Assembly: GCA_041661265.1 (NCBI GenBank)
Contig: JBAZUT010000003.1
Coordinates: 15,191 to 79,190, forward strand
Source of the DNA: Minisyncoccota bacterium
Lineage (GTDB): Bacteria; Patescibacteriota; Minisyncoccia; JAHIHE01; JAGLIN01
Length of the DNA: 64,000 nucleotides
Reading direction: 5' to 3'
A program made the translations under genes and the position numbers. Position 1 is the stretch's first letter, and every line of letters begins with the position of its first letter. Shown piece by piece: positions 7,597 through 54,334 of this stretch. The notes under the pieces were generated by a model. It made no database searches, was not told where the DNA came from, and was given only the letters and a program-made list of their open reading frames with translations.

Positions 7597-7713
7597 GCCG
7601 AGGTGGCCGAGAAGGATAGGCGGACTTCGTCTTGCTGAAAAGCCAGACTATGTCCCGCCAAAGGCAGAAGACAGCAGATCTTCAAAACACAGGTTCGAAT
7701 CCTGTCCTTGGCT
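7597..7713 (+). other. tRNA-like element, non-canonical (117 nt). Canonical 3' half, Leu-like 5' half, about 45-nt insertion between them
   Basis: Exact T-arm acagg-TTCGAAT-cctgt (7689-7705). The 3' acceptor strand ccttggc pairs with gccgagg at 7597-7603, allowing one G.U. 'tg' (U8, G9) and a D-arm gcc-gagaaGGata-ggc follow, like tRNA-Leu 'GCCGAGGTGG'. A stem-loop gaaga-cagcaga-tcttc (7667-7683) sits five nt before the T-arm. Confidence 0.35.
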
Positions 7714-11487: not shown

Positions 11488-11603
11488 TACATTCAATAAA
11501 CAGCTATTTCTTTTATTTTAGCCTTCCAATAAGATAGGTCGTTTTGTGATGAGGATAAAATAAAGAAAAAAGCAAAATGGCCTATCGGGGGCTGTTTTTT
11601 GTT
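11488..11603 (+). ncRNA. candidate small RNA, copy B of the paralogous family (about 115 nt)
   Basis: Two TTGACA -35 elements at 11432 and 11459. Core 'atttcttttattttagccttccaataagataggtcgttttgtgatgagg' is about 75% identical to copy D. The 3' hairpin is followed by T6 at 11595-11600. Confidence 0.5.
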
Positions 11604-11706
11604 ATGACATTGAAAACATATTATCGGTTTTAATACGGCATAAAACCGATAAAGTGGGTTCAAATGGACCTTGATAATCAAATAATACAAAAAAGGAGGA
11701 AAGAAG

Positions 11707-11988
11707 ATGATAGCGGGAAAGCCCAAAGATGAGATCGATGAGATGATCTATGCACTTCGCGAGATCTGCCCGGACGTCGGAATAATAAGAAAAAATGGAA
11801 AAATTATTATGACGGGAAATGGGATCATGCGCGTAAAAAAAACAGTGAAGATATTATCCGGAATAGAGAGGATCGAATCCATCAATAAATATGGCACACG
11901 GTGCATACTTGAGATGAAGGGCGACGAGGCGATCATAATGAATGTTGCCAGCAATGAACGAAGTGAGGAATTATGCGTTATAGCGTAA
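11707..11988 (+). CDS. hypothetical small protein (93 aa)
   Basis: Strong RBS AAGGAGG. First gene of a 4-gene small-protein cassette. Confidence 0.5.
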   Translation: MIAGKPKDEIDEMIYALREICPDVGIIRKNGKIIMTGNGIMRVKKTVKILSGIERIESINKYGTRCILEMKGDEAIIMNVASNERSEELCVIA

Positions 11989-12278
11989 TGGATATTGAAG
12001 ACGAAACATCTGAGCTGGTGGCCATGAAGAGGTCTGGAAGCGATGATTCGGCAGACATTCTCTGCTGGAGGATCGGCCAGATGCTGCCGGAAATCGCTAT
12101 CGGCCCAATGACAAGAAATGACAGGATAATGTCGGTGTTACAGAAAGTTGAAACGGCGATATGCTTCTTGTCGGACTCAAAAAACAAAAAAAATCTTGAG
12201 ATCGTGATCCGGAATAAAAAAGAAGAAATAAAAAAATCGGAGAGCCAAAGGGAAAATTTGGCTCTCCCCAACTTTTAA
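11973..12278 (+). CDS. hypothetical small protein (101 aa)
   Basis: Start overlaps the end of the upstream gene by 16 nt, which suggests translational coupling. Confidence 0.45.
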   Translation: MRYSVMDIEDETSELVAMKRSGSDDSADILCWRIGQMLPEIAIGPMTRNDRIMSVLQKVETAICFLSDSKNKKNLEIVIRNKKEEIKKSESQRENLALPNF

Positions 12279-12412
12279 TTTGATATGTTCAGCCATGGAC
12301 ACGGTTTTGCATCAGACGAAAGCTTTTAAAAAAGTTTCTGCCTGCGGCAAAAGCGGCTTGCGGGATAAGGCGATTGTCTTATTGAATTGAAAAAATAAAA
12401 GGAGGAAGAAAA

Positions 12413-12715
12413 TTGAAGGAAAAATGGAGCATAAGCGAAGAAGAAAAGATGATAATAGGTATGATAAGTGTTTATCGAAAGCGGATGAAGAAGTCAAAAA
12501 CGACCGCTAAAATGCTTTATTGCAGAGACCAGATGGATCGAAAAAAGGCTGAACTTGGCAGGCTGAGATCAAGGATCAGAGCGGCCGACTCGGAGAATGA
12601 GAACAGAAAAAGAAACAGGAATTATCCTCCGATGACGGATACGCCGGACCACTGTTCGACCTGCGACCAGAAGCTGAATGATACGTGGAATTGTCTCGGC
12701 TATCCCTCTGCATAA
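12413..12715 (+). CDS. hypothetical basic protein with Cys-rich C-terminus (100 aa, TTG start or internal ATG)
   Basis: RBS AGGAGG. Basic KRMKKSK stretch and C-terminal 'DHCSTCDQKLNDTWNC'. Confidence 0.4.
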   Translation: MKEKWSISEEEKMIIGMISVYRKRMKKSKTTAKMLYCRDQMDRKKAELGRLRSRIRAADSENENRKRNRNYPPMTDTPDHCSTCDQKLNDTWNCLGYPSA

Positions 12716-12746
12716 TGAATGTGACGATCGAAGAAGGTGAGTCAAA

Positions 12747-13091
12747 ATGGACAATATGGAATTAATGCCGCAATGGGCGAAAAATAGAGCTCCGTATTGG
12801 ATAAATGGCGATGAATGTCCCGCGTGCAACGGAGCGAACTATAAGATCGAGGTGATCGAGTGCAATGAATACCTGAAAACAGTCGAGATTCGCGCATTGT
12901 GCGGCGATTGTGGGCACCGGGAAAATAAATGTATATCGGAATGTTGGACGGAATGGGAGATCTGCCCCAGATGCAAAAAGAAAAGCGATGTAGCGGAAAA
13001 CAGTATTCCCGGAGGAGGGAATATCGTGCTGGCAGTGTCTTTCATATCCCGATGTTCCCATTGCGGATTTGAAGAATCATTCGGCTATTGA
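12747..13091 (+). CDS. zinc-ribbon-rich protein (114 aa, at least four CxxC pairs)
   Basis: CPACN, CGDCGH, CPRCKK and CSHCG motifs. RBS GAAGGTGAG. Confidence 0.5.
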   Translation: MDNMELMPQWAKNRAPYWINGDECPACNGANYKIEVIECNEYLKTVEIRALCGDCGHRENKCISECWTEWEICPRCKKKSDVAENSIPGGGNIVLAVSFISRCSHCGFEESFGY

Positions 13092-13555
13092 AAACAAAGA
13101 CGTGGTACAAAAGGCAGGCTTCAGGCTTGCCTTATTTATTATAACAAAAACCACCGGCGTTAGCCGGTGTGTGCGTTTAGAGCGATAGCTCTTGTGTAAC
13201 TGTAATATAGTAATTGCCATATTATCATTCTAGGTCGTGTCATCCTGAACTTGTTTCAGGATCTTCGTTACATTTCGTAAGAGTGATGTAGTAAAGCAAT
13301 AACGAAATAAAACGAGGATTCCGGATCCCTCCGGAGGCGGGCAGGCAAGTCCGGAATGACAAACAGGCAGATAATCGATTAAGACAGATCAGAAACTACA
13401 TAAAAAACCAAGATGTAAACAGAGTTGAATTAGCACAACAGACGTTATGGAAAAAACAGGCATAGCCTGCCAAGCAGATACCCTCGGCGTCAAGCCGGGG
13501 GTATGTTCATTATTTTCGACATTGACACATGCCTGCATTGTGCTATAATGGCAAA

Positions 13556-13683
13556 GTAAGCTCAAATATCATGAAATACGGTATAAATAACAATTTCTTC
13601 TTTTTTAGCTATAACTTCCTTAAAAGATAGGTTATTTTGTGATAATTCAGATGAAAATAGCCTGTCGAAGAGGCTGTTTTTTA
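13556..13683 (+). ncRNA. candidate small RNA, copy D of the paralogous family (about 128 nt)
   Basis: Consensus promoter TTGACA(13522-13527)-16-TATAAT(13544-13549). Core 'atttcttcttttttagctataacttccttaaaagataggttattttgtgataa'. Terminator agcct/aggct plus T6 at 13659-13682. Confidence 0.55.
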
Positions 13684-13854
13684 ATGATATAAAGAACCAT
13701 TCAGTTTTCCACGCGATGGAAGATTGAATGGTAAGTTAAATCTTGCCAATGTGCGCCTCGGTGGCTGAAAAGAGCGCCGGCATGAAACACCGGAATATGC
13801 GGATCAAAATTCCGCCCGAGGCAAAAAAATTAAAAAAATACAGGAGGAACCGAA

Positions 13855-37494: not shown

Positions 37495-39780
37495 ATGTAT
37501 CTAAAAAGGATAGAAACATCCGGCTTCAAATCATTTGCAAACAAGACAGATCTTGATTTTCCGAAAGGAGTCACGGGGATCGTAGGCCCGAACGGATCCG
37601 GAAAATCCAATATTGCCGATGCGGTGAAGTGGGTGCTGGGAGAGCAGAGCATGAAAAGTCTCCGAAGCAAGAAAGGAGAAGATGTTATATTCACGGGAAG
37701 CAGTAAGAAGGCGAAAATGAGCGCTGCGTCAGTTTCGCTTTTTCTTGATAATAATGATAAAAAGATCCCTATAGATTATGATGAAGTTGTGCTGACGAGA
37801 AAATTATTCAGAAACGGAGACAGTGAATATCTGATAAACAAGAACAGGGTCAGGCTTTCGGACATTGTCGATCTTCTCGTGAAGTCCGGCGTAAGCCAGA
37901 GAGGTTATTGCGTAATAAATCAGGGTATGGCTGATTCCATTTTGGCGGCATCTCCGACCGAAAGGATGGTTATTTTCGAGGAAGCGACAGGGGTTCGGGC
38001 ATTCCAGATCAAGAAAAACCATACGATAAAGAAACTTGATGCAACGAAAAGAAACATGGTGAGGGTAACCGATCTTCTTGTTGAGATCGAGCCAAGGCTT
38101 GCTTTTCTGAAAAGACAGGCTTCAAGAGCGCTGAAGCGCGGAGAGGTTGAAAAGGAGTTGCGTGATGAACAGAATAGGCTTTATGGCGCTATATGGAAAA
38201 AATTGAACAAAGACAATGAGATATACAGGCAGCAGAAGGATGAAGTTGAGAAGGTGCTCGGTGGAAGCGAGAAAGAGATCGAGGAACTGAAAAAGCAATT
38301 GGAGGCATGTGATGGCAAGGATGTTGATTATAGCGGCGAATTCGAGAAGCTCAGGAATGAAATTGATTCGATACAAGTCACGATGAATGACCTGAGAAAG
38401 CACCTTTCGATGACTGAAGGCAGGATAGAGATCGAGAACGAAAGAAAGGTAAAAATAGAGAATCCCGACTTTCTGCCTATAAATCTGAAATACGTGAAAG
38501 AAAAGCTTACGAATATCATGGGTATTTTCAATAAATTGGCCTCAATTCTTGAGAATTTCGATAACCCCGAGAAGATCAATGAAGCGAGAAAAGAAGGCGC
38601 GGAAATAAAAGCCTTGATAATCGATCTATATGATGAAGTTCAGTCCGGAAAGATAAGCCAGAAGAAGCACGATATTCAATTTGACGACTCGAAGCTGAAG
38701 GAGCTGGAGAAAGAAAAGGGGCATATCGGCGGAAAAATCGAGGATCACCGGAAAAAATATGAAGAGGTCAGGAAGAAGATCGGCGAACTTAGCGACGAGG
38801 AAAAGGAAAAAAGAAAAGCGTTCTATGAATATGAAAGCAGGCTTCGCATCAGACAGGAAGAGATGAACAGATTGAAGGATAATATGAACCGGATAGGGAT
38901 CGAGCTGGCGAAATTCGAGGTCAGAAAAGAGGATCTTACGAATGAAGTGCGGGATGAGCTCGGGACCGCAAACCCTGTTTATGAGAGAATAGAAAAAAAC
39001 ATAATCAATGGAGGATCGGAGCTTGAAAATATAAATATCGATGAATCAAGGCAAAAGGTCAGAAGGTTAAAGGTCCAATTCGAGCAGATCGGAGGCATTG
39101 ATCCGCTTGTAGTGGAGGAATATGAGGAAACGGAAAAACGATTCGAATTTCTGACTGCGCAATCCAAAGATCTTGATCAGGCATCAGAGTCCATGAGGAG
39201 GATCATAGGGGAGCTGGATGAAAAAATAGAAAAACGTTTTAAGAGCTCGTTTAAGAATATCAGCGATGAATTTGACAGATATTTCAAGATAATCTTTTCC
39301 GGTGGAAAGGCGAATTTGTCGATAAGATATGAAGCTGAAAGCGAGGCCGCTGCCGGCGAAGAGGGTTCCGAGGAACAAGAATCAGGCGGTGAAGCTGATG
39401 AAATGGAAAGCGCGGAAAAAAAGCAAAGGATAGCGGGTATTGAAGTGAATGTTGCGCCTCCCGGAAAAAAGATCGCAAGTCTCGATATGCTTTCGGGCGG
39501 TGAAAGGGCGCTGACATCTATAGCTATACTGTTTGCTATCATTGCCAATAATCCGCCGCCATTTTCGGTTTTGGACGAGATAGATGCTGCATTGGATGAG
39601 GCAAATTCCGCGAAGCTATCTACAATAATAAAGGAAGTTTCAAAGAGTACGCAGTTTATTCTGATAACCCACAACCGAGAAATGATGAAGCAGGCCGATA
39701 TACTTTATGGAGTCACTATGCACGATGACGGCGTTTCGAAAATAATATCGATCAAACTCGAGGAAATAAAGGAAAAATAG
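37495..39780 (+). CDS. smc: SMC-family chromosome segregation ATPase (short, 761 aa)
   Basis: N-terminus 'IVGPNGSGKSNIADAVKWVLGEQS'. C-terminus 'LSGGERALTSIAILFAI...FSVLDEIDAALD'. Confidence 0.7.
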   Translation: MYLKRIETSGFKSFANKTDLDFPKGVTGIVGPNGSGKSNIADAVKWVLGEQSMKSLRSKKGEDVIFTGSSKKAKMSAASVSLFLDNNDKKIPIDYDEVVLTRKLFRNGDSEYLINKNRVRLSDIVDLLVKSGVSQRGYCVINQGMADSILAASPTERMVIFEEATGVRAFQIKKNHTIKKLDATKRNMVRVTDLLVEIEPRLAFLKRQASRALKRGEVEKELRDEQNRLYGAIWKKLNKDNEIYRQQKDEVEKVLGGSEKEIEELKKQLEACDGKDVDYSGEFEKLRNEIDSIQVTMNDLRKHLSMTEGRIEIENERKVKIENPDFLPINLKYVKEKLTNIMGIFNKLASILENFDNPEKINEARKEGAEIKALIIDLYDEVQSGKISQKKHDIQFDDSKLKELEKEKGHIGGKIEDHRKKYEEVRKKIGELSDEEKEKRKAFYEYESRLRIRQEEMNRLKDNMNRIGIELAKFEVRKEDLTNEVRDELGTANPVYERIEKNIINGGSELENINIDESRQKVRRLKVQFEQIGGIDPLVVEEYEETEKRFEFLTAQSKDLDQASESMRRIIGELDEKIEKRFKSSFKNISDEFDRYFKIIFSGGKANLSIRYEAESEAAAGEEGSEEQESGGEADEMESAEKKQRIAGIEVNVAPPGKKIASLDMLSGGERALTSIAILFAIIANNPPPFSVLDEIDAALDEANSAKLSTIIKEVSKSTQFILITHNREMMKQADILYGVTMHDDGVSKIISIKLEEIKEK

Positions 39781-47336: not shown

Positions 47337-47537
47337 ATGAAAGAATGTCAAAATTGCGGCATGCCCATGGTGAAAAATGAGGATTTCGGGAATAGCGACC
47401 CGAAAAGTGTTTTGTGCAGACTGTGTTTTTCCGATAAAAGTGCGGACGAAGAGAAAAAGGCAAGAGTTCCTGAGAAGGAAATTAAAATAATTGAACTGGT
47501 GGATCTGGACAGGCTGGATAGCGGAGATCTATTTTAA
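47337..47537 (+). CDS. small zinc-ribbon protein (66 aa)
   Basis: 'CQNCGMP...CRLCF'. Own terminator agacc/ggtct plus T7 at 47556-47578. Confidence 0.4.
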   Translation: MKECQNCGMPMVKNEDFGNSDPKSVLCRLCFSDKSADEEKKARVPEKEIKIIELVDLDRLDSGDLF

Positions 47538-47623
47538 GCTTTCGATAGGCGATAGACCTTATGCAGGTCTTTTTTTGTTGCAAATAATGACGAAAATCGT
47601 TATAATTATAACAATAGAAATAA

Positions 47624-48454
47624 ATGAATAATAAATTCATATTAGCAATAATTGTTGTTGTCAGCGCACCGATGGTTGCGGCTTATTTGTGGTATAAGAC
47701 TGACGAACTGTCCCCGGAACCTGTTAAAGAAAACATGTCCTATTATGAGATTGTAAAAGAAGACGAAAAATGCGCTGACAATTGTTTTTTGGAATATATC
47801 GTTATGTCAGATGGCGTGGTCATGGAGAAATATATAAAAGATTTCAACAATAAAGAAAAGAACGGAATAAGGATGCTGAATGCGGGTGTTGAAGTGGAAA
47901 AGCTATTCGAAAAAGTTGCGTTATTTTTTAATAAATACGGAACAAATGACGGCATCAGCTGCGAGAGCTGTTCGTCATATCATTTATATTACTCGGGACG
48001 CGACGGCAGGAGATCGTTCGCGACAATAGAAGGAAGCAACGATTCGGAGGTCGTGAATATTCTTAGCGCCACTATGGATCTCATTGCAAAAGCAAGCGAG
48101 GGTAATGTTGATTTTTTTCATTTTTATTACGGCAAAAAAGACGGCGGATATCTTGATTATCATATTTTCACGGATGGCGTGATAATCCGTGAGGTGTTCG
48201 GCAAACGGAACGGCCAACTTCTGGAGTCGGATATTTATCGGTCAGATGGCAAAAGGATAGCTGATGTCATAAATTTAACGAAGGCGGATTTTTTTAATGA
48301 GAATAGTGAAATCAAGTTTTGCAACAACAGGGAGTTTCTATGGGGTTATCTTGAAGTAAAAACGCGAGAAAGCTATAATTACATATATACATGCGGCGAC
48401 GGAAAGAATGATTCCGACATAATCTTCGATTATTTATATAATAATTTTGAATAG
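47624..48454 (+). CDS. hypothetical secreted or membrane-anchored protein (276 aa). First gene of a 4-gene operon
   Basis: N-terminal anchor. Stop overlaps the next start (TAGATG). Promoter TTGCAA-17-TATAAT upstream. Confidence 0.5.
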   Translation: MNNKFILAIIVVVSAPMVAAYLWYKTDELSPEPVKENMSYYEIVKEDEKCADNCFLEYIVMSDGVVMEKYIKDFNNKEKNGIRMLNAGVEVEKLFEKVALFFNKYGTNDGISCESCSSYHLYYSGRDGRRSFATIEGSNDSEVVNILSATMDLIAKASEGNVDFFHFYYGKKDGGYLDYHIFTDGVIIREVFGKRNGQLLESDIYRSDGKRIADVINLTKADFFNENSEIKFCNNREFLWGYLEVKTRESYNYIYTCGDGKNDSDIIFDYLYNNFE

Positions 48455-49369
48455 ATGAAATATACGGCAATATCCATATCGATTATCGCTGTTTGTTTCG
48501 CAAAAATTGCGGAAGCGATCATTATAGTCCCTCCGATCATTTATATTGCCACCTTTTCCGTCGGATCATTTGTATTGAATACATTTATGATGACGGCCGT
48601 CTATATGGCTGGCCGGGGACTTGTGGATCGTTTTTATCTCGGGAAGCAGATGCATGAAATTGTCGGCATTGCGTTTTCATATCTGGGATATATATTTGTT
48701 ATTATAGTTACGTCATTTGTTTCCATAGCCATCTTTGATCCGATCGATGCGCGAAGCCTGTTCTATGCGAGCGTTTTCTCTACCTTTTTGAGCTTTCTTA
48801 TGATGGCTCTGAATAATTTCAGAAAATACACGCTTGCAGATTCGCACAAGAGGAATGAGATTGTTCTGCCGATGATAGTTTTTTCTGTGATCGTTTTTAT
48901 AATAACGTTCGTGTCTGCATATTTCTCGATCAGTACCAGCATTATAAAAAAACAGGACCTTCCGAAAAAAACGGCGGTAACCGAGGATGTGTCAAATGCT
49001 CCCAGTGTTAATTTCGGAATTAATTTTGAAGCGAGCAAGAAAATGGCCGGTGAATACAAGAAGCAGGATGCGTCCGTTGCGGCGCCTGAAACCAAGGAAG
49101 ATATTTGGTTCTATCCGTATATGAATGGAACATGCGAGATATACGTGGGAGGACGGCTCATCAAAGCTGAAATGCCATCGGGAAAATGCTTCTATTACGA
49201 TAACAGCAATAATACGAGAAGAATGATATGTCCTATATATCTGACATTTGAAGAACTGAGCAGGTCACAGCCCAAGAAGAGCGCGTTAATGCAAATAGAA
49301 GGAAGGGGTTCGTGTCTCGACAGCTACAGGGTATATATAACCGAGAGCGGATTTAAATATGTTCAATAG
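48455..49369 (+). CDS. hypothetical polytopic membrane protein with Cys-containing C-terminal extracytoplasmic domain
   Basis: About 4 TM helices, then a 130-aa soluble domain. Confidence 0.5.
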   Translation: MKYTAISISIIAVCFAKIAEAIIIVPPIIYIATFSVGSFVLNTFMMTAVYMAGRGLVDRFYLGKQMHEIVGIAFSYLGYIFVIIVTSFVSIAIFDPIDARSLFYASVFSTFLSFLMMALNNFRKYTLADSHKRNEIVLPMIVFSVIVFIITFVSAYFSISTSIIKKQDLPKKTAVTEDVSNAPSVNFGINFEASKKMAGEYKKQDASVAAPETKEDIWFYPYMNGTCEIYVGGRLIKAEMPSGKCFYYDNSNNTRRMICPIYLTFEELSRSQPKKSALMQIEGRGSCLDSYRVYITESGFKYVQ

Positions 49370-49372
49370 AAA

Positions 49373-51802
49373 ATGAAAACAAAATTGAGACAAATAAAAA
49401 TTAAGGGTCTCGGAAAATTGAATATTTACGGGACGGGCGAAGGCGATGTTGTTGTGTTGGAGAAAGATGAGAATTCTTACTTTATGGGCGCGTCAAAAGA
49501 ATGTACGCAAGATTTTTTTGATAGAATATATGATGAAAATGGGCCTTTCTGGAGGCTTTATGCGAATGCAGGATTTGCGGTCAGGCCGCAACAGACCAAA
49601 TATGCCGTATATGTCGGCAACGCCTTATATTTCAGGAAAAGCGTTGAGGAAAGGTATATGTATAATGCCGGTATTGAGAAGGATTATGCCATAAAAAACA
49701 ATTACCTCATAAGAAAAACGAAATGGGATTTGCGCAATCTGATATATCTGCTGACATTGCCCTTTGATGAGGCAAGACAATTTGTAAACATGATAAAATT
49801 CAGCTTTTATGCGAATGAAATGATCCGAGGATATGAAAGATCATACAGAAGCGCCATTGAATTTTATAATTTTTATTCAAGTGAAGGAAATATTTATGAT
49901 CCTGCAAAGACGGCAAAAGAGGCAATGGAACGAGCTGTGGAAATGATGGAATATTCAATTGCGGCTTTTATATGCAATAAATACGGAATAAAATTAAAGC
50001 ATTCAAAATATATCGACGAATGCGAGCTTGAAAAGCTGTCGACTTATATCGAAACGAATAACACGATGGCGATCCTGGATGAGTTCGAATTTTATTCGCT
50101 CAATCCCTATGACATATCTGTGCCCCGGCTCTTCGAGGACGATTTTAGGATCAATAAATTTTCAGGTTTCAAGGTGCCCGGCGATAATTCATTAAGATGG
50201 AGAGAAAATGTAAAATTCATAGTTGCGAGATACATGCATATAATGAGGATGTGCTATAAACTGATAGGAGACAATAGTAAAATGGGCGATCTTATATTCT
50301 ATTTGAAGATAAATGAATTAAGCAAAATCGATCCGGATGCGGAAGGATCGGTCCGGGACCTCATTGATGTTGCGCTAAAAAGAAAAAATGATCTTGAAAC
50401 GATAAGGAATATCGGATTGCCAAGCGTTCTGGTGTATAAGAATGAAAAATATTATGAAAAGGCGGGAATCGATCTTGCCGATAAATCGAAAAATAGGCTG
50501 AACGCGATAAGTGTATCGTCAAAGAAAAGTGTCAGCGGACCCATAGTCAATATAAACAGCATGGGTGATTATGAAAAATGCGCAGAGGGTTCCATAATAC
50601 TTTCAAAAACATTATCTCCGAATCTTGTGATCCTGTTCAAGAAGGCTGCAGGGATCATAGCTGAAAGCGGGGGATCGCTGTGCCATGCCGCAATAATAGC
50701 TCGAGAGATGAATTTGCCGTGCCTGATACAATTAAAGACGAAGAACGGCATCCCGGATGGAAGCATTGTAAGGCTGGACGGCAAAAATGCGACAGTTACG
50801 ATATTGGATGCTGAAAAAAAGGCTGAAAAAGAAACAACTCACAACGAACTGAACAAAGCTAGTGCAGAGCTGGAGACCGCGCGCAAAAATCCGGATCAGT
50901 CCGTGCACGAAAGAATTGTTCTTAACAAAGGTCAAAAGGTGGATTTTTATATGTTGAGCGGCGGAAAGCTTCAAAGCAAAAGCGCAGGAAACAAGGCGGC
51001 TAATCTTTCAGAGATATATTCTCATTTCAATGTCCCTGATGGGTTCGTCATCGACTCTGAGTATTTTAGAAAATTGAACGGCTTTGAAAGGATCGGATCC
51101 ATAGTGAGAGAAATTAATAAGGCCAATGCGTCGGAAATAGCGAAATTGGAGGAGCATTACAATGTTTTGAAAAATGAATTTTCGAATATAGAATTCTCCA
51201 GAAAATTGGCGGATGAACTTGGACTGTTCTATGAAAAACTGGCCTCACGGCTGGTTGCGGCAAGGTCCAGTTCTTCCAGTGAGGATAGCGCCAAGGCGTC
51301 TTTTGCGGGACAATTCGATTCATACATCAATATCGGCGACATTAACAATCTTGAGTATGCGATAAAGAGCTGCTGGGCTTCGTTCTATTCCCCAAGGTCT
51401 GTTGTATATAGGAAAGAAAACAGAATTAAAAATGATAGCGCAAATATGGCGATATTGGTTCAAAAAATGATCGAAGCGAAATATTCCGGAATAGCATTTT
51501 CAAAGGACATAATGAATGATAATGCAATGTCTATAGAGGTTATTCCCGGTACATGTGAAAAACTGGCATCAGGAGAGGTTTCACCGAATGTTTATATTAT
51601 CGAAAGAGAAAGCATGTCGGTGTTGAAGGTTAATGCAAATTTTGATTTCGATGACAATCTTGTCACAGGTCTTGCAACAGAGGTTCTAAAGCTCGAAAAT
51701 TATTTCAAGGCGCCGCAAGATGTCGAATGGTGCATAGATAATGAGAATAAGATATGGATAATTCAAACCAGGCCGATAACTTCGGCGTGTAAAATCAAAT
51801 AA
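49373..51802 (+). CDS. PEP-utilising-enzyme family protein with permuted domain order (unknown N-domain, then His-swivel domain, then PPDK_N ATP-grasp domain)
   Basis: 'GGSLCHAAIIAREMNLP' (phospho-His swivel) at about aa 430-450. 'GGKLQSKSAGNKAANLSE...VEWCIDNENKIWIIQTRPIT' (nucleotide-binding domain) at about aa 505-809. Confidence 0.6.
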   Translation: MKTKLRQIKIKGLGKLNIYGTGEGDVVVLEKDENSYFMGASKECTQDFFDRIYDENGPFWRLYANAGFAVRPQQTKYAVYVGNALYFRKSVEERYMYNAGIEKDYAIKNNYLIRKTKWDLRNLIYLLTLPFDEARQFVNMIKFSFYANEMIRGYERSYRSAIEFYNFYSSEGNIYDPAKTAKEAMERAVEMMEYSIAAFICNKYGIKLKHSKYIDECELEKLSTYIETNNTMAILDEFEFYSLNPYDISVPRLFEDDFRINKFSGFKVPGDNSLRWRENVKFIVARYMHIMRMCYKLIGDNSKMGDLIFYLKINELSKIDPDAEGSVRDLIDVALKRKNDLETIRNIGLPSVLVYKNEKYYEKAGIDLADKSKNRLNAISVSSKKSVSGPIVNINSMGDYEKCAEGSIILSKTLSPNLVILFKKAAGIIAESGGSLCHAAIIAREMNLPCLIQLKTKNGIPDGSIVRLDGKNATVTILDAEKKAEKETTHNELNKASAELETARKNPDQSVHERIVLNKGQKVDFYMLSGGKLQSKSAGNKAANLSEIYSHFNVPDGFVIDSEYFRKLNGFERIGSIVREINKANASEIAKLEEHYNVLKNEFSNIEFSRKLADELGLFYEKLASRLVAARSSSSSEDSAKASFAGQFDSYINIGDINNLEYAIKSCWASFYSPRSVVYRKENRIKNDSANMAILVQKMIEAKYSGIAFSKDIMNDNAMSIEVIPGTCEKLASGEVSPNVYIIERESMSVLKVNANFDFDDNLVTGLATEVLKLENYFKAPQDVEWCIDNENKIWIIQTRPITSACKIK

Positions 51803-51806
51803 AAAC

Positions 51807-52967
51807 ATGATATTAAAAGATCCTCTTTACGGTTTTATCTCAATCGGCGAGCCTTTCAAGAGCCTGATGGATACCGAGCAATTCCAGCGTTTGCGGAATA
51901 TAAAGCAGCTCGGACAAAGCTATATTGTTTATTCATCTGCAAATCATACGAGATTCGAGCATTCGATCGGAACATATTATCTTGCTCAAAAGGTCGCAGA
52001 AAATAATGCAATTGAAAATAAAGATGAATTCATTGCGGCAGCTTTATTGCATGATATCGGGCATTATCCATTCTCACATTCCATTGAGAAGGCCGTCAGG
52101 CAATTGACGGAGAAGGGCCACGAGCAGCAAAGCATTGAGATCATCAGAAATACGAATATTTCAAAAATATTAAGAGATCATGGATTGGATATTGAGCTTA
52201 TCTGCAATTATATAGAAGGAAAAGGGAAATATGCCAGCCTGATCTCGGGTCAGATCGACGTTGACCGTATGGATTATCTGAAAAGAGATTCATATTATAC
52301 GGGCGTAGCTTACGGGATTATTGAATCTGATGTTATTATCAATAATTATACGATAAAAGGCGACGACTATATAGCCGATATCAAATATCTGCCGGCATTT
52401 GAGTCCGTTCTAATCGCCAGATACCTGATGTATTCAATGGTATATATGCACCATAGGACCATAATTGCGAATACAATGCTCCGCAGCGCATTTATTGAAG
52501 CTCTTAATAACGGCGATTTTAAGATCGAAAAGCTCATTGAATTCGATGATATTGATCTCATAAGCAGATTCAGATCGTCTTCTTCTCCCGCAAAACAACT
52601 TATGGATGCCATTACGAAAAGAAATTTATACAAGGAAGCCATTATTTTCAGCAAAGATGATTTTGAAGATGCAGGTAAGATGATAGGATACGATAAAGTG
52701 CAGGAAGTCGAGGCGTTGATCGCTAAAGAATTGAAATTAAATCGGTATGAGGTGCTGATTAATATCATGGGATTTCCAAAATCAAACAAAAGCAGGATAC
52801 TGATCAGTCCTTCGATGAAAAAACTTGAGGATATATCGCCGATCGTAAGCTCTCTGAATATGGCAGAATGGAATCACTGGTTTGCCGGAGTTTATTGCCA
52901 GGAAAAGGATATTGATAAAATCCGGCAAAAAAAAGATATGATCAGGTCATATCTTATAGGAAAATAG
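51807..52967 (+). CDS. HD-domain phosphohydrolase (dGTPase-like)
   Basis: 'FEHSIGTYYLAQ', 'LLHDIGHYPFSH', 'DVDRMDYLKRD'. Confidence 0.65.
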   Translation: MILKDPLYGFISIGEPFKSLMDTEQFQRLRNIKQLGQSYIVYSSANHTRFEHSIGTYYLAQKVAENNAIENKDEFIAAALLHDIGHYPFSHSIEKAVRQLTEKGHEQQSIEIIRNTNISKILRDHGLDIELICNYIEGKGKYASLISGQIDVDRMDYLKRDSYYTGVAYGIIESDVIINNYTIKGDDYIADIKYLPAFESVLIARYLMYSMVYMHHRTIIANTMLRSAFIEALNNGDFKIEKLIEFDDIDLISRFRSSSSPAKQLMDAITKRNLYKEAIIFSKDDFEDAGKMIGYDKVQEVEALIAKELKLNRYEVLINIMGFPKSNKSRILISPSMKKLEDISPIVSSLNMAEWNHWFAGVYCQEKDIDKIRQKKDMIRSYLIGK

Positions 52968-52984
52968 CACTGAAGGATAATGTT

Positions 52985-54334
52985 CTATATAGCATTATCC
53001 TTTTTCATTATCTCAATAGCTTCTATCACCGAAAAAGCCGCGCGAGTAATGCCCATACTTCTCATATCGGCGTCAGTACCGACTAAATACAGTCCTTTAA
53101 TGGGCACTTTGGGTGAGGGAAATTCTATATTGACCTTTATGGCGCCTTTTTCCGGTATTATGGTTTGAACATGCTCAAACTCGACATTCTGTTCCGCGTT
53201 CGGGATTGCTTTGAAAATACATTCTTTCAGGTTCTTAAGCTGTTTTTCAAAACTGCTTTCTTTGAATATCGTTGTAAATCCAACCAGCTGCTTGTTCTTG
53301 GGGCATAAAGTGTTATCGTAATTAGACGAAGGAACTGCCCAAAAAGGCGTTTCTGAATCGAAAAATATTTCAGAACCTATATATGCAAACTCTGGTAATT
53401 TTTTTTTAAAACCGAGCCAAAGAGTAAAGCTAAGCGTTTGCTCGATTTTTTTCAACTGATCCGAGAACTTAGCGGGCAAGGCCCTGCAGAGGCGGGGAAG
53501 GTCTTTGGCGTAGCCTGAAAAAATCACAAGATCTGATCGATAAACCTCCTTGTGTGTTCGGACGGAGTATATCGATCCTTCTTTTGTAATAAGCTCAGTC
53601 ACATCTTCAGCCAAATGTATCTCGACATTAGGTTTATTGAATGAATTTATTGCGCAGGACGTTATGCTCTGAATGCCTCCAAGCGGATATCCCTGGGAAG
53701 AAAAATCCTGTCTTGCGATCTTCATGAATTTGCGTAAATGGCTTGTGGCGCTGCCGGTATCGCCATCCAAATATCCCGACCCGCCGAGAATCCTCCATGC
53801 AGGAGTTTCTTTTATGGATTTGCCGCTTAGGAAATATGAAACCGCATCCAGAAATCTGATCGATTTCGGCGACATATTATATTTTCCTATGAAGCTGTAT
53901 ACGCTCTGGTTCAGTATATTCTTATTGAGCGAGGAGTTAGCAACGGCGTCTATGAGAGCCCCCGAGAGCAGCAGCCGGTCTTTTTTCGAGAGAATATCGA
54001 ATTTTGCAAGCTGGATCAGCGTTAGAGGAAACTCCTGGAATTTATTCTGATATCTGACATAATACATTCCGAACGGCACGAAGCGAGGGATCACCGTAAA
54101 ATATTTTTTCATGATGAATGTTAGCGGGCCTTTCACTAAGTCCGTAATTGCGTGAGGCCCCGTGTCCACAAAATATCCATCGATCTCATAAGTACGGCAA
54201 TTCCCTCCCAAATAAGAGTTTTTTTCTATTATCAGTACTTTCTTGCCTTCCTTGGAAAGGATCAGTGCGGACAATAGACCGCTGATACCGCCCCCGACAA
54301 CTATTGCGTCATATTTTTTATTTTCAGAATTCAT
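52985..54334 (-). CDS. FAD-dependent oxidoreductase (phytoene-desaturase/amine-oxidase-like)
   Basis: 'YDAIVVGGGISGLLSALIL...GGNCRT'. Confidence 0.6.
   Translation of the reverse strand: MNSENKKYDAIVVGGGISGLLSALILSKEGKKVLIIEKNSYLGGNCRTYEIDGYFVDTGPHAITDLVKGPLTFIMKKYFTVIPRFVPFGMYYVRYQNKFQEFPLTLIQLAKFDILSKKDRLLLSGALIDAVANSSLNKNILNQSVYSFIGKYNMSPKSIRFLDAVSYFLSGKSIKETPAWRILGGSGYLDGDTGSATSHLRKFMKIARQDFSSQGYPLGGIQSITSCAINSFNKPNVEIHLAEDVTELITKEGSIYSVRTHKEVYRSDLVIFSGYAKDLPRLCRALPAKFSDQLKKIEQTLSFTLWLGFKKKLPEFAYIGSEIFFDSETPFWAVPSSNYDNTLCPKNKQLVGFTTIFKESSFEKQLKNLKECIFKAIPNAEQNVEFEHVQTIIPEKGAIKVNIEFPSPKVPIKGLYLVGTDADMRSMGITRAAFSVIEAIEIMKKDNAI

Follow-up and report, generated by a model that had tools for sequence, protein, structure and literature searches.

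A gene cassette of two envelope proteins and a putative A-B fused dikinase shared by candidate phyla radiation bacteria and DPANN archaea

A four-gene operon and its central enzyme

A 64,000-nt stretch of contig JBAZUT010000003.1 from a Minisyncoccota bacterium (assembly GCA_041661265.1), referred to below as the window, carries four genes, P1 to P4, on the forward strand at positions 47624-52967 (Table 1). They are separated by 0-4 nt, which agrees with the tight operon reported in a preliminary description of the sequence. The stop codon of P1 abuts the start codon of P2 (TAGATG, 48452-48457), and the following junctions read TAG-aaa-ATG (P2/P3, 49367-49375) and TAA-aaac-ATG (P3/P4, 51800-51809). 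The 5' boundary of the unit is formed by a terminator-like hairpin and T-run that ends an upstream 66-aa Zn-ribbon gene, a terminator already recognized in the preliminary description, and the 3' boundary by a hairpin between P4 and a convergent amine-oxidase-like gene. A promoter had been placed at about 47580-47615, and a sigma-70-like match is indeed present in the sole intergenic gap 5' of P1. As promoter-like matches are not commoner in the region than in shuffled sequences (28 vs 22 +/- 4.6, no enrichment), only the position of this match recommends it as a promoter.

Table 1. Positions of the four genes, the parts of P3 and the flanking signals in the window
Feature	Position	Strand	Basis or remarks
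Terminator-like hairpin and T-run	47554-47577	+	Stem 47554-47570, then TTTTTTTG
Sigma-70-like promoter match TTGCAA-17-TATAAT	47578-47606	+	10/12 matches
P1	47624-48454	+	276 aa; open reading frame list
P2	48455-49369	+	304 aa; open reading frame list
P3	49373-51802	+	809 aa; open reading frame list
P3 residues 1-382, putative reduced substrate-binding domain of the rifampin phosphotransferase type	49373-50518	+	hhalign, AlphaFold2 model, Foldseek
P3 residues 383-480, phospho-histidine swivel domain	50519-50812	+	Pfam PF00391, E 4e-17
P3 residues ~481-520, linker at inferred fusion junction	50813-50932	+	Poorly conserved, low-confidence
P3 residues ~521-809, ATP-grasp (PPDK_N) nucleotide-binding domain	50933-51802	+	Pfam PF01326, E 7e-60
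P4	51807-52967	+	386 aa; open reading frame list
13-bp hairpin	52972-53003	+	Between P4 and convergent amine-oxidase-like gene

Two recognizable domains account for the C-terminal half of P3. The hidden Markov model search suggested in the preliminary description was run against Pfam and placed the swivel domain (PEP-utilizers, residues 405-472, with GGSLCHAAIIARE at 50669-50707) ahead of the ATP-grasp domain (PPDK_N, residues 537-754 and beyond, to ~805), which bears out the claim that the order is not the standard one. The phosphoenolpyruvate (PEP)/pyruvate TIM-barrel domain (PF02896) was not found in P3 by Pfam, again as described before, and residues 1-400 gave no Pfam match. Hydropathy analysis revealed zero hydrophobic segments, indicating a soluble protein, and the ATP-grasp domain matches rifampin phosphotransferase (RPH), PEP synthase and HpeI in the PDB. 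The name assigned by NCBI is “PEP/pyruvate-binding domain-containing protein,” and “phosphoenolpyruvate synthase” heads the NCBIfam and PDB matches, so that P3 could be taken for a PEP synthase or pyruvate phosphate dikinase (PPDK) of central metabolism that has diverged. This identity is highly implausible and was rejected, as the TIM barrel is absent, the third domain appears to be of the RPH type (see below) and the scores lie under the family cut-offs (NCBIfam NF005057, 235 vs 598). The database naming is thereby corrected: P3 is not a PEP synthase.

The N-terminal region of about 400 aa had been regarded as uncharacterized. Direct sequence searches of the PDB with this domain returned noise only, and profile-profile and fold comparison were therefore needed to establish its homology. 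In a HMMER search of the PDB, P3 residues 307-479 align with the end of the rifampin-binding (RIF-binding) domain and the swivel of RPH. When the profile built from the N-terminal region (A4) was compared with one of RPH-like enzymes (A5), hhalign gave a probability of 96.7% (E 3.6e-10), the alignment covering P3 residues 230-384 and the segment directly preceding the swivel in RPH-like enzymes. An AlphaFold2 model of residues 1-382 (pLDDT 84.7, pTM 0.84) was compared with the PDB by Foldseek, and the top five matches were all RPH (probability 0.99-1.0), the sixth match dropping to 0.06. The region is thus Pfam-less, as had been noted, but it is not a region of its own kind; the profile match and the five Foldseek matches point to a reduced substrate-binding domain of the RPH type.

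The residues on which RPH chemistry depends can be located in P3. The second phosphotransfer of RPH-Lm requires Arg666 and Glu667, and Lys670 is part of the network in which these two take part (PMC4844700). An alignment of RPH-Lm with the homologue P0012, followed by one of P0012 with P3, equates RPH R666/E667/K670 with P3 R277/E278/K281, and the resulting motif R277-E278-N-V-K281 (50201-50215) lies within an invariant WRENVKF. At the ATP site, K541, R631 and S650 correspond to K22, R117 and T136 of RPH, the first two being invariant and S650 nearly so. The catalytic His438 (50684-50686) is part of GGSLCH438, a GGxxxH motif, and is kept in nine of ten full-length homologues. Because all of these positions map to RPH, P3 would retain the residues required for both half-reactions of an RPH-type dikinase, an activity predicted from homology. 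In one homologue, P0009 (210-2669 of locus L005), the His438 column of alignment A1 holds an Asp (GSALSDISIIARE), and the closest relative, P0010, has His; the exchange may stem from a sequencing error, mark an inactive copy or represent a phosphomimetic variant.

Fused and split forms of the dikinase

In the two-component dikinases HpeHI, CreHI and PpsAB, the A subunit consists of substrate domain and swivel and the B subunit of the ATP-grasp domain (Dexter et al., PMC12167813). Fusion of such subunits in the order A then B would give exactly the succession of substrate domain, swivel and ATP-grasp domain predicted for P3. The reversed order, which had been described as a domain permutation, is consequently real, but it is best explained by the joining of the A and B subunits of a known two-component layout. 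Judged by its sequence, P3 is a putative cytoplasmic small-molecule dikinase of the RPH kind with its A and B parts fused.

A search of 1.84 billion representatives with the N-domain profile showed the family to be rare, with only 47 matches, including about six fused proteins of 807-821 aa and about 25 proteins of 450-530 aa. All of the shorter relatives tested (10/10) carry only a C-terminal swivel domain beyond the N-domain, and in one locus from an uncultured archaeon (L017), a stand-alone 316-aa PPDK_N gene (E 2e-99) is located immediately downstream on the opposite strand. In a neighbor-joining tree, the fused forms group as one clade nested among diverse split forms, which suggests that they are a single derived clade. 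The linker of P3 is charged, variable and gapped in the alignment, and modeled with a pLDDT below 50 at residues 480-512; the lack of conservation and the low confidence of the segment ~480-520 match the expectation for a fusion linker. An A-B fusion would represent a third natural topology in the RPH and two-component dikinase family and would indicate that the swivel mechanism tolerates circular permutation.

Some of the loci show further peculiarities. In two DPANN-type loci, a second swivel gene lies a few kb from the cassette (L016, 7343-8794 on the minus strand, 484 aa; L007, 2584-3645 on the minus strand, 354 aa), with a C-terminal swivel and a different, Pfam-less N-terminal region. 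This arrangement suggests several A-type acceptor subunits per genome, perhaps sharing one ATP-grasp subunit. The kinase A gene of Iainarchaeum (L018, 2582-4138, plus strand) is longer, at 519 aa, and the match of its N-domain to the profile falls into two overlapping segments (model positions 7-156 and 114-375), suggesting an internal insertion or partial duplication.

Envelope partners, the HD gene and the distribution of the cassette

To follow the neighborhood of the kinase, 19 loci were collected and annotated with profiles of each part, one of them being among the matches listed in a metagenome scan. In 12 of 15 independent loci, the gene immediately preceding the kinase is a P2 homologue, whose stop codon often overlaps the start codon of the kinase, and a P1 homologue is present upstream as well, wherever the sequence extends far enough. 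Two loci with unrelated neighborhoods illustrate this arrangement, with homologues of P1 and P2 directly 5' of the kinase (L003, E 2e-44 and 3e-47; L008, E 4e-40 and 2e-27); the same order precedes the kinase in L014-L019, and C-terminal fragments of P2 remain where the contigs of L007, L009 and L011 break off. An all-against-all comparison brought out no more than three recurring genes, those of the kinase (15 independent groups), P2 (12) and P1. The hosts comprise Paceibacterota, Patescibacteria and Minisyncoccia as well as Nanoarchaeota, Micrarchaeota and Iainarchaeum/Diapherotrites, and the cassette is common to bacteria of the candidate phyla radiation (CPR) and DPANN archaea. The coupling of the kinase to two envelope proteins, proposed before from this one locus, is therefore conserved across both groups. 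Relatives were not found on viral contigs (IMG/VR), and the searchable literature contained no description of the arrangement or of the family in CPR or DPANN. The JGI contig 3300067987 (L003) carries a fused kinase, a P1 with lipobox and P2 among archaeal- or actinobacterial-looking neighbors (NucS, a DUF7343-type helix-turn-helix protein, rubrerythrin and TspO), from which it may follow that the fused form is not confined to CPR bacteria.

This conservation bears on the possibility that P3 is a self-sufficient, RPH-like kinase that inactivates xenobiotics or antibiotics, next to P1 and P2 genes with a separate envelope function. Such a role would fit the RPH-type architecture and catalytic residues, the Patescibacteria clade that has the fused kinase without P1 and P2 nearby, and the fact that RPH-family enzymes work alone and on soluble substrates (PMC4844700). 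However, P2 immediately precedes the kinase in those 12 of 15 groups from two domains of life, and P1 occurs nowhere outside the cassette among 5.8 billion clusters; so exclusive an association would be difficult to account for if the genes had no function in common. A self-sufficient kinase is consequently considered rather unlikely.

Both partners are predicted envelope proteins, in agreement with the preliminary description. Hydropathy analysis of P1 identified a single, N-terminal hydrophobic segment, which would serve as anchor, and its orthologues in L003, L008 and L014-L018, including most of the archaeal ones, begin with a lipobox-like sequence (...GC/...AC). Cysteines are located at positions 50, 54, 113, 116, 233 and 257, and C233 and C257 are invariant in 12 orthologues. 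Among 5.8 billion clusters, the P1 profile retrieved only 8, all of them from the P1-P2-kinase cassette. P2 exhibits a signal-like N-terminus and four transmembrane segments with K/R-rich loops at 55-68 and 123-134; P27, Y30, T33, S35 and F39 are invariant in the first transmembrane segment. Its C-terminal domain, placed outside the cell by the predicted topology, contains four invariant cysteines (C227, C245, C259 and C287). Neither protein matched any entry in Pfam, NCBIfam or PDB sequences, even as a profile. P1 is thus best described as a putative surface-tethered, Cys-rich protein and P2 as a predicted protein with four transmembrane segments and a Cys-rich ectodomain, each apparently representing a new family. 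Common descent of P1 and the P2 ectodomain as paralogues was also considered and rejected (hhalign probability 1%).

The loops of P2 raise the question of a protein substrate. P3 might phosphorylate or regulate P2, or a P1-P2 envelope machine, as part of a phosphorelay-like transmembrane device, given that its swivel is homologous to that of enzyme I of the phosphotransferase system (PTS), a protein phosphorylator, and that Y61, G63, H67, E68, R123 and Y125 on the cytoplasmic side of P2 are conserved in the clade of the window. His67 and other loop residues are not kept in DPANN orthologues, however, so that there is no conserved acceptor, and the N-domain of P3 retains the small-molecule site motif of RPH; action on a protein is thus improbable. 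The specific candidate, a PTS-like phosphorelay to His67 of the P2 loop, was rejected, as this residue is invariant in the clade of the window and replaced in the DPANN orthologues.

P4 differs from the other genes in its distribution. Pfam assigns an HD domain (PF01966, 49-160) and an HD_assoc_2 domain (PF19276, 176-375) to the protein, hydropathy analysis indicates no hydrophobic segments, and the matches in the PDB are 2hek (E 1e-50), 2q14, 2o6i/3irh and SAMHD1 (E 1e-19). With its motifs HTRFEH, HDIGH and DRMD, P4 is assigned to the HD phosphohydrolases of the SAMHD1/EF1143 type and is probably a deoxynucleoside triphosphate (dNTP) triphosphohydrolase. The HD gene was found only in the window and in three further loci (L001, L002 and L006; kinase identity 47-63%), which repeat all four genes. 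Synteny among them reaches iPGM upstream and the amine oxidase, MFS/spermidine synthase, U32 and NusA genes downstream; being close relatives that are syntenic far past the operon, these loci give no independent evidence. The distant cassettes (L003, L019, L008 and L014-L018) lack the HD gene.

These data also bear on the proposal, made in the preliminary description, that all four genes form one module for nucleotide modification, signaling or defense. The gaps of 0-4 nt, the position between terminator-like hairpins and the recurrence of the same four genes in L001, L002 and L006 speak for such a unit, as does the membership of P4 in the SAMHD1/dGTPase superfamily, some members of which act in defense. 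The neighborhood comparison sets against this that P1, P2 and P3 recur in distant loci and P4 only in close, syntenic relatives: the four genes do co-occur elsewhere, in genomes that are not independent of the window, and a module including P4 is not upheld. The defense component fares no better, as P1-P3 have zero padloc matches and P4 yields only a weak padloc match to a dGTPase model (E 6.6e-10), scores 17.7 bits against a cut-off of 400 for the NCBIfam model antiphage_dGTPase (NF041026) and also falls under the dGTPase equivalog cut-offs. With no relatives on the viral contigs searched and housekeeping genes in the surroundings, a defense system was rejected, and a four-gene module of any of these kinds is given little credence. 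Since the HD gene accompanies the cassette only in close, fully syntenic genomes, a functional link of P4 to it is unsupported, and P4 is most simply regarded as a housekeeping neighbor that happens to share a transcription unit in the lineage of the window.

Several other features of the window were recorded. Just 5' of the operon, the Zn-ribbon_2 mini-gene (47337-47537, plus strand, 66 aa) has its own terminator-like hairpin; a similar 66-aa mini-gene with a weak Pfam match precedes the cassette in L001, only an unannotated 53-aa open reading frame (ORF) lies upstream in L002, and no such mini-gene was called upstream of the distant cassettes. The housekeeping genes of the window include those for NusA, trigger factor, bacterial TopA, ComEC, SMC, NrdD and a Na+-pyrophosphatase. 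An SMC-like ORF of 761 aa (37495-39780, plus strand) matches the 1181-position SMC_prok_B model with its head and tail in two stretches and appears to be a short version of SMC that has lost much of its coiled coil. ARAGORN detected no tRNA in the 64-kb window, and Rfam gave a tRNA match of 43.7 bits at 7597-7713 (plus strand, 117 nt), interrupted behind the D-arm by an insertion of 47 nt; its 5' end (GCCGAGGUGGCCGAGAAGG) resembles a class-II (Leu/Ser-type) tRNA, and it may be a long-arm tRNA with an intron-like insert. A 2.3-kb stretch (11500-13800) contains only ORFs of up to 114 aa and no Rfam match, and one of these ORFs (12747-13091, 114 aa) is Cys-rich with several CxxC pairs.

Proposed function and comparison with known systems

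Taken together, it appears probable, though by no means settled, that P1, P2 and P3 constitute a conserved cassette in which an ATP-dependent dikinase acts on a small molecule handled by the two envelope proteins, with P4 as a neighbor. In the proposed mechanism, ATP would bind to the C-terminal ATP-grasp domain of P3 (K541, R631 and S650), and His438 of the swivel would take over the beta-phosphate, with release of AMP and Pi. The swivel, mounted on flexible linkers, would then move to the N-terminal domain, where R277, E278 and K281 would position the phospho-histidine for transfer of the phosphate to a hydroxyl group of the small molecule. The likeliest role of P1 and P2, as suggested by gene order only, would be to capture the substrate at the membrane or to offer it there, and the substrate is possibly a lipophilic or host-derived compound.

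Several points weigh against this interpretation. The N-domain (~385 aa) is smaller than the RIF-binding domain, and its Foldseek matches have E-values of ~1e-3 and TM-scores of 0.33-0.46; the hhalign match reaches residues 230-384 only, so that the first ~230 residues are supported by the fold only. For most split forms, the flanking sequence retrieved contained no ATP-grasp gene, and the tree that groups the fused forms carries no support values. That P1, P2 and P3 are connected, physically or in function, is suggested by gene order alone. In one Patescibacteria clade (L004/L013, L005, L010 and L012), the fused kinase has no P1 or P2 within 8 kb, which demonstrates that the kinase can exist without adjacent partners. 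Finally, the transcription unit shared with P4 in the window may reflect a lineage-specific link of this gene to the cassette.

A more far-reaching version of this interpretation would see in the cassette a hitherto unrecognized capture-and-phosphorylate system of ultra-small episymbionts that spread between CPR and DPANN by horizontal transfer: the lipoprotein P1 together with P2 would take up a host-derived, possibly lipophilic compound, and the dikinase would phosphorylate it inside the cell. This scenario is speculative and, as it stands, doubtful. The genomes of CPR bacteria and DPANN archaea are tiny, and these organisms rely on hosts to supply lipids, nucleotides and cofactors. To our knowledge, the uptake and activation of host compounds in these organisms are largely unexplained. 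With two apparently new envelope families joined to a predicted dikinase, the rare cassette is a concrete candidate for a step that salvages or modifies such compounds, and it provides an example of gene sharing between two domains of life.

Among characterized systems, RPH-Lm (PDB 5FBS/5FBT/5FBU and 5HV1-3) and the RPH-like dikinases, including the prodigiosin ligases PigC and HapC, contain the same three domain types as predicted for P3. The catalytic His, the Lys and Arg of the ATP site and the Arg-Glu-x-x-Lys of the second phosphotransfer site are shared. The order in RPH is ATP-grasp, substrate domain, swivel, whereas P3 shows a circular permutation of it. The substrate domain of P3 is also the more diverged, with its first 230 residues beyond the reach of Pfam and HMMER, and P3 scores 184.8 bits against the NCBIfam model NF041857, whose cut-off is 999. 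Envelope-protein neighbors such as P1 and P2 do not accompany RPH.

The two-component dikinases HpeHI, CreHI and PpsAB agree with P3 in layout: the A part precedes the B part in P3, genuine split A genes occur among its relatives, with an adjacent B gene in L017, and the structure of HpeI (9goj) matches its ATP-grasp domain. In these systems, A and B are separate polypeptides, whereas they are fused into one chain in P3, and the PpsA-like NCBIfam model PRK08296 matches only the swivel part of P3 (371-479; 49 bits vs cut-offs of 578-730). Partners of the P1/P2 type have not been described for HpeHI, CreHI and PpsAB. Genes of aromatic catabolism, such as those for a carboxylase or a phosphatase, were absent from the neighborhood of the P3 family, which resides among housekeeping or uncharacterized genes in CPR and DPANN hosts rather than in aromatic degraders.

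PEP synthase, PPDK and PTS enzyme I have a homologous ATP-grasp domain, swivel or both and share the mechanism of a swiveling phospho-histidine; P3 lacks the PEP/pyruvate TIM barrel and remains far under the family cut-offs. The coupling of phosphorylation to membrane proteins in the manner of the PTS is only an analogy, and the capture-and-phosphorylate scenario would likewise be functionally analogous to PTS group translocation or to lipid and polyprenol salvage, but with unrelated membrane parts. P4 shares the HD domain (H..H, HD and D motifs) and HD_assoc_2 with dNTPases of the SAMHD1, EF1143 and Aq_1910 type, although it stays below the dGTPase-equivalog and anti-phage cut-offs and is not conserved with the cassette. 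Measured against these systems, the chemistry of the enzyme and its split architecture have precedents, whereas the A-B fused topology, the diverged and reduced substrate domain, the two envelope families and the distribution limited to CPR and DPANN would be new.

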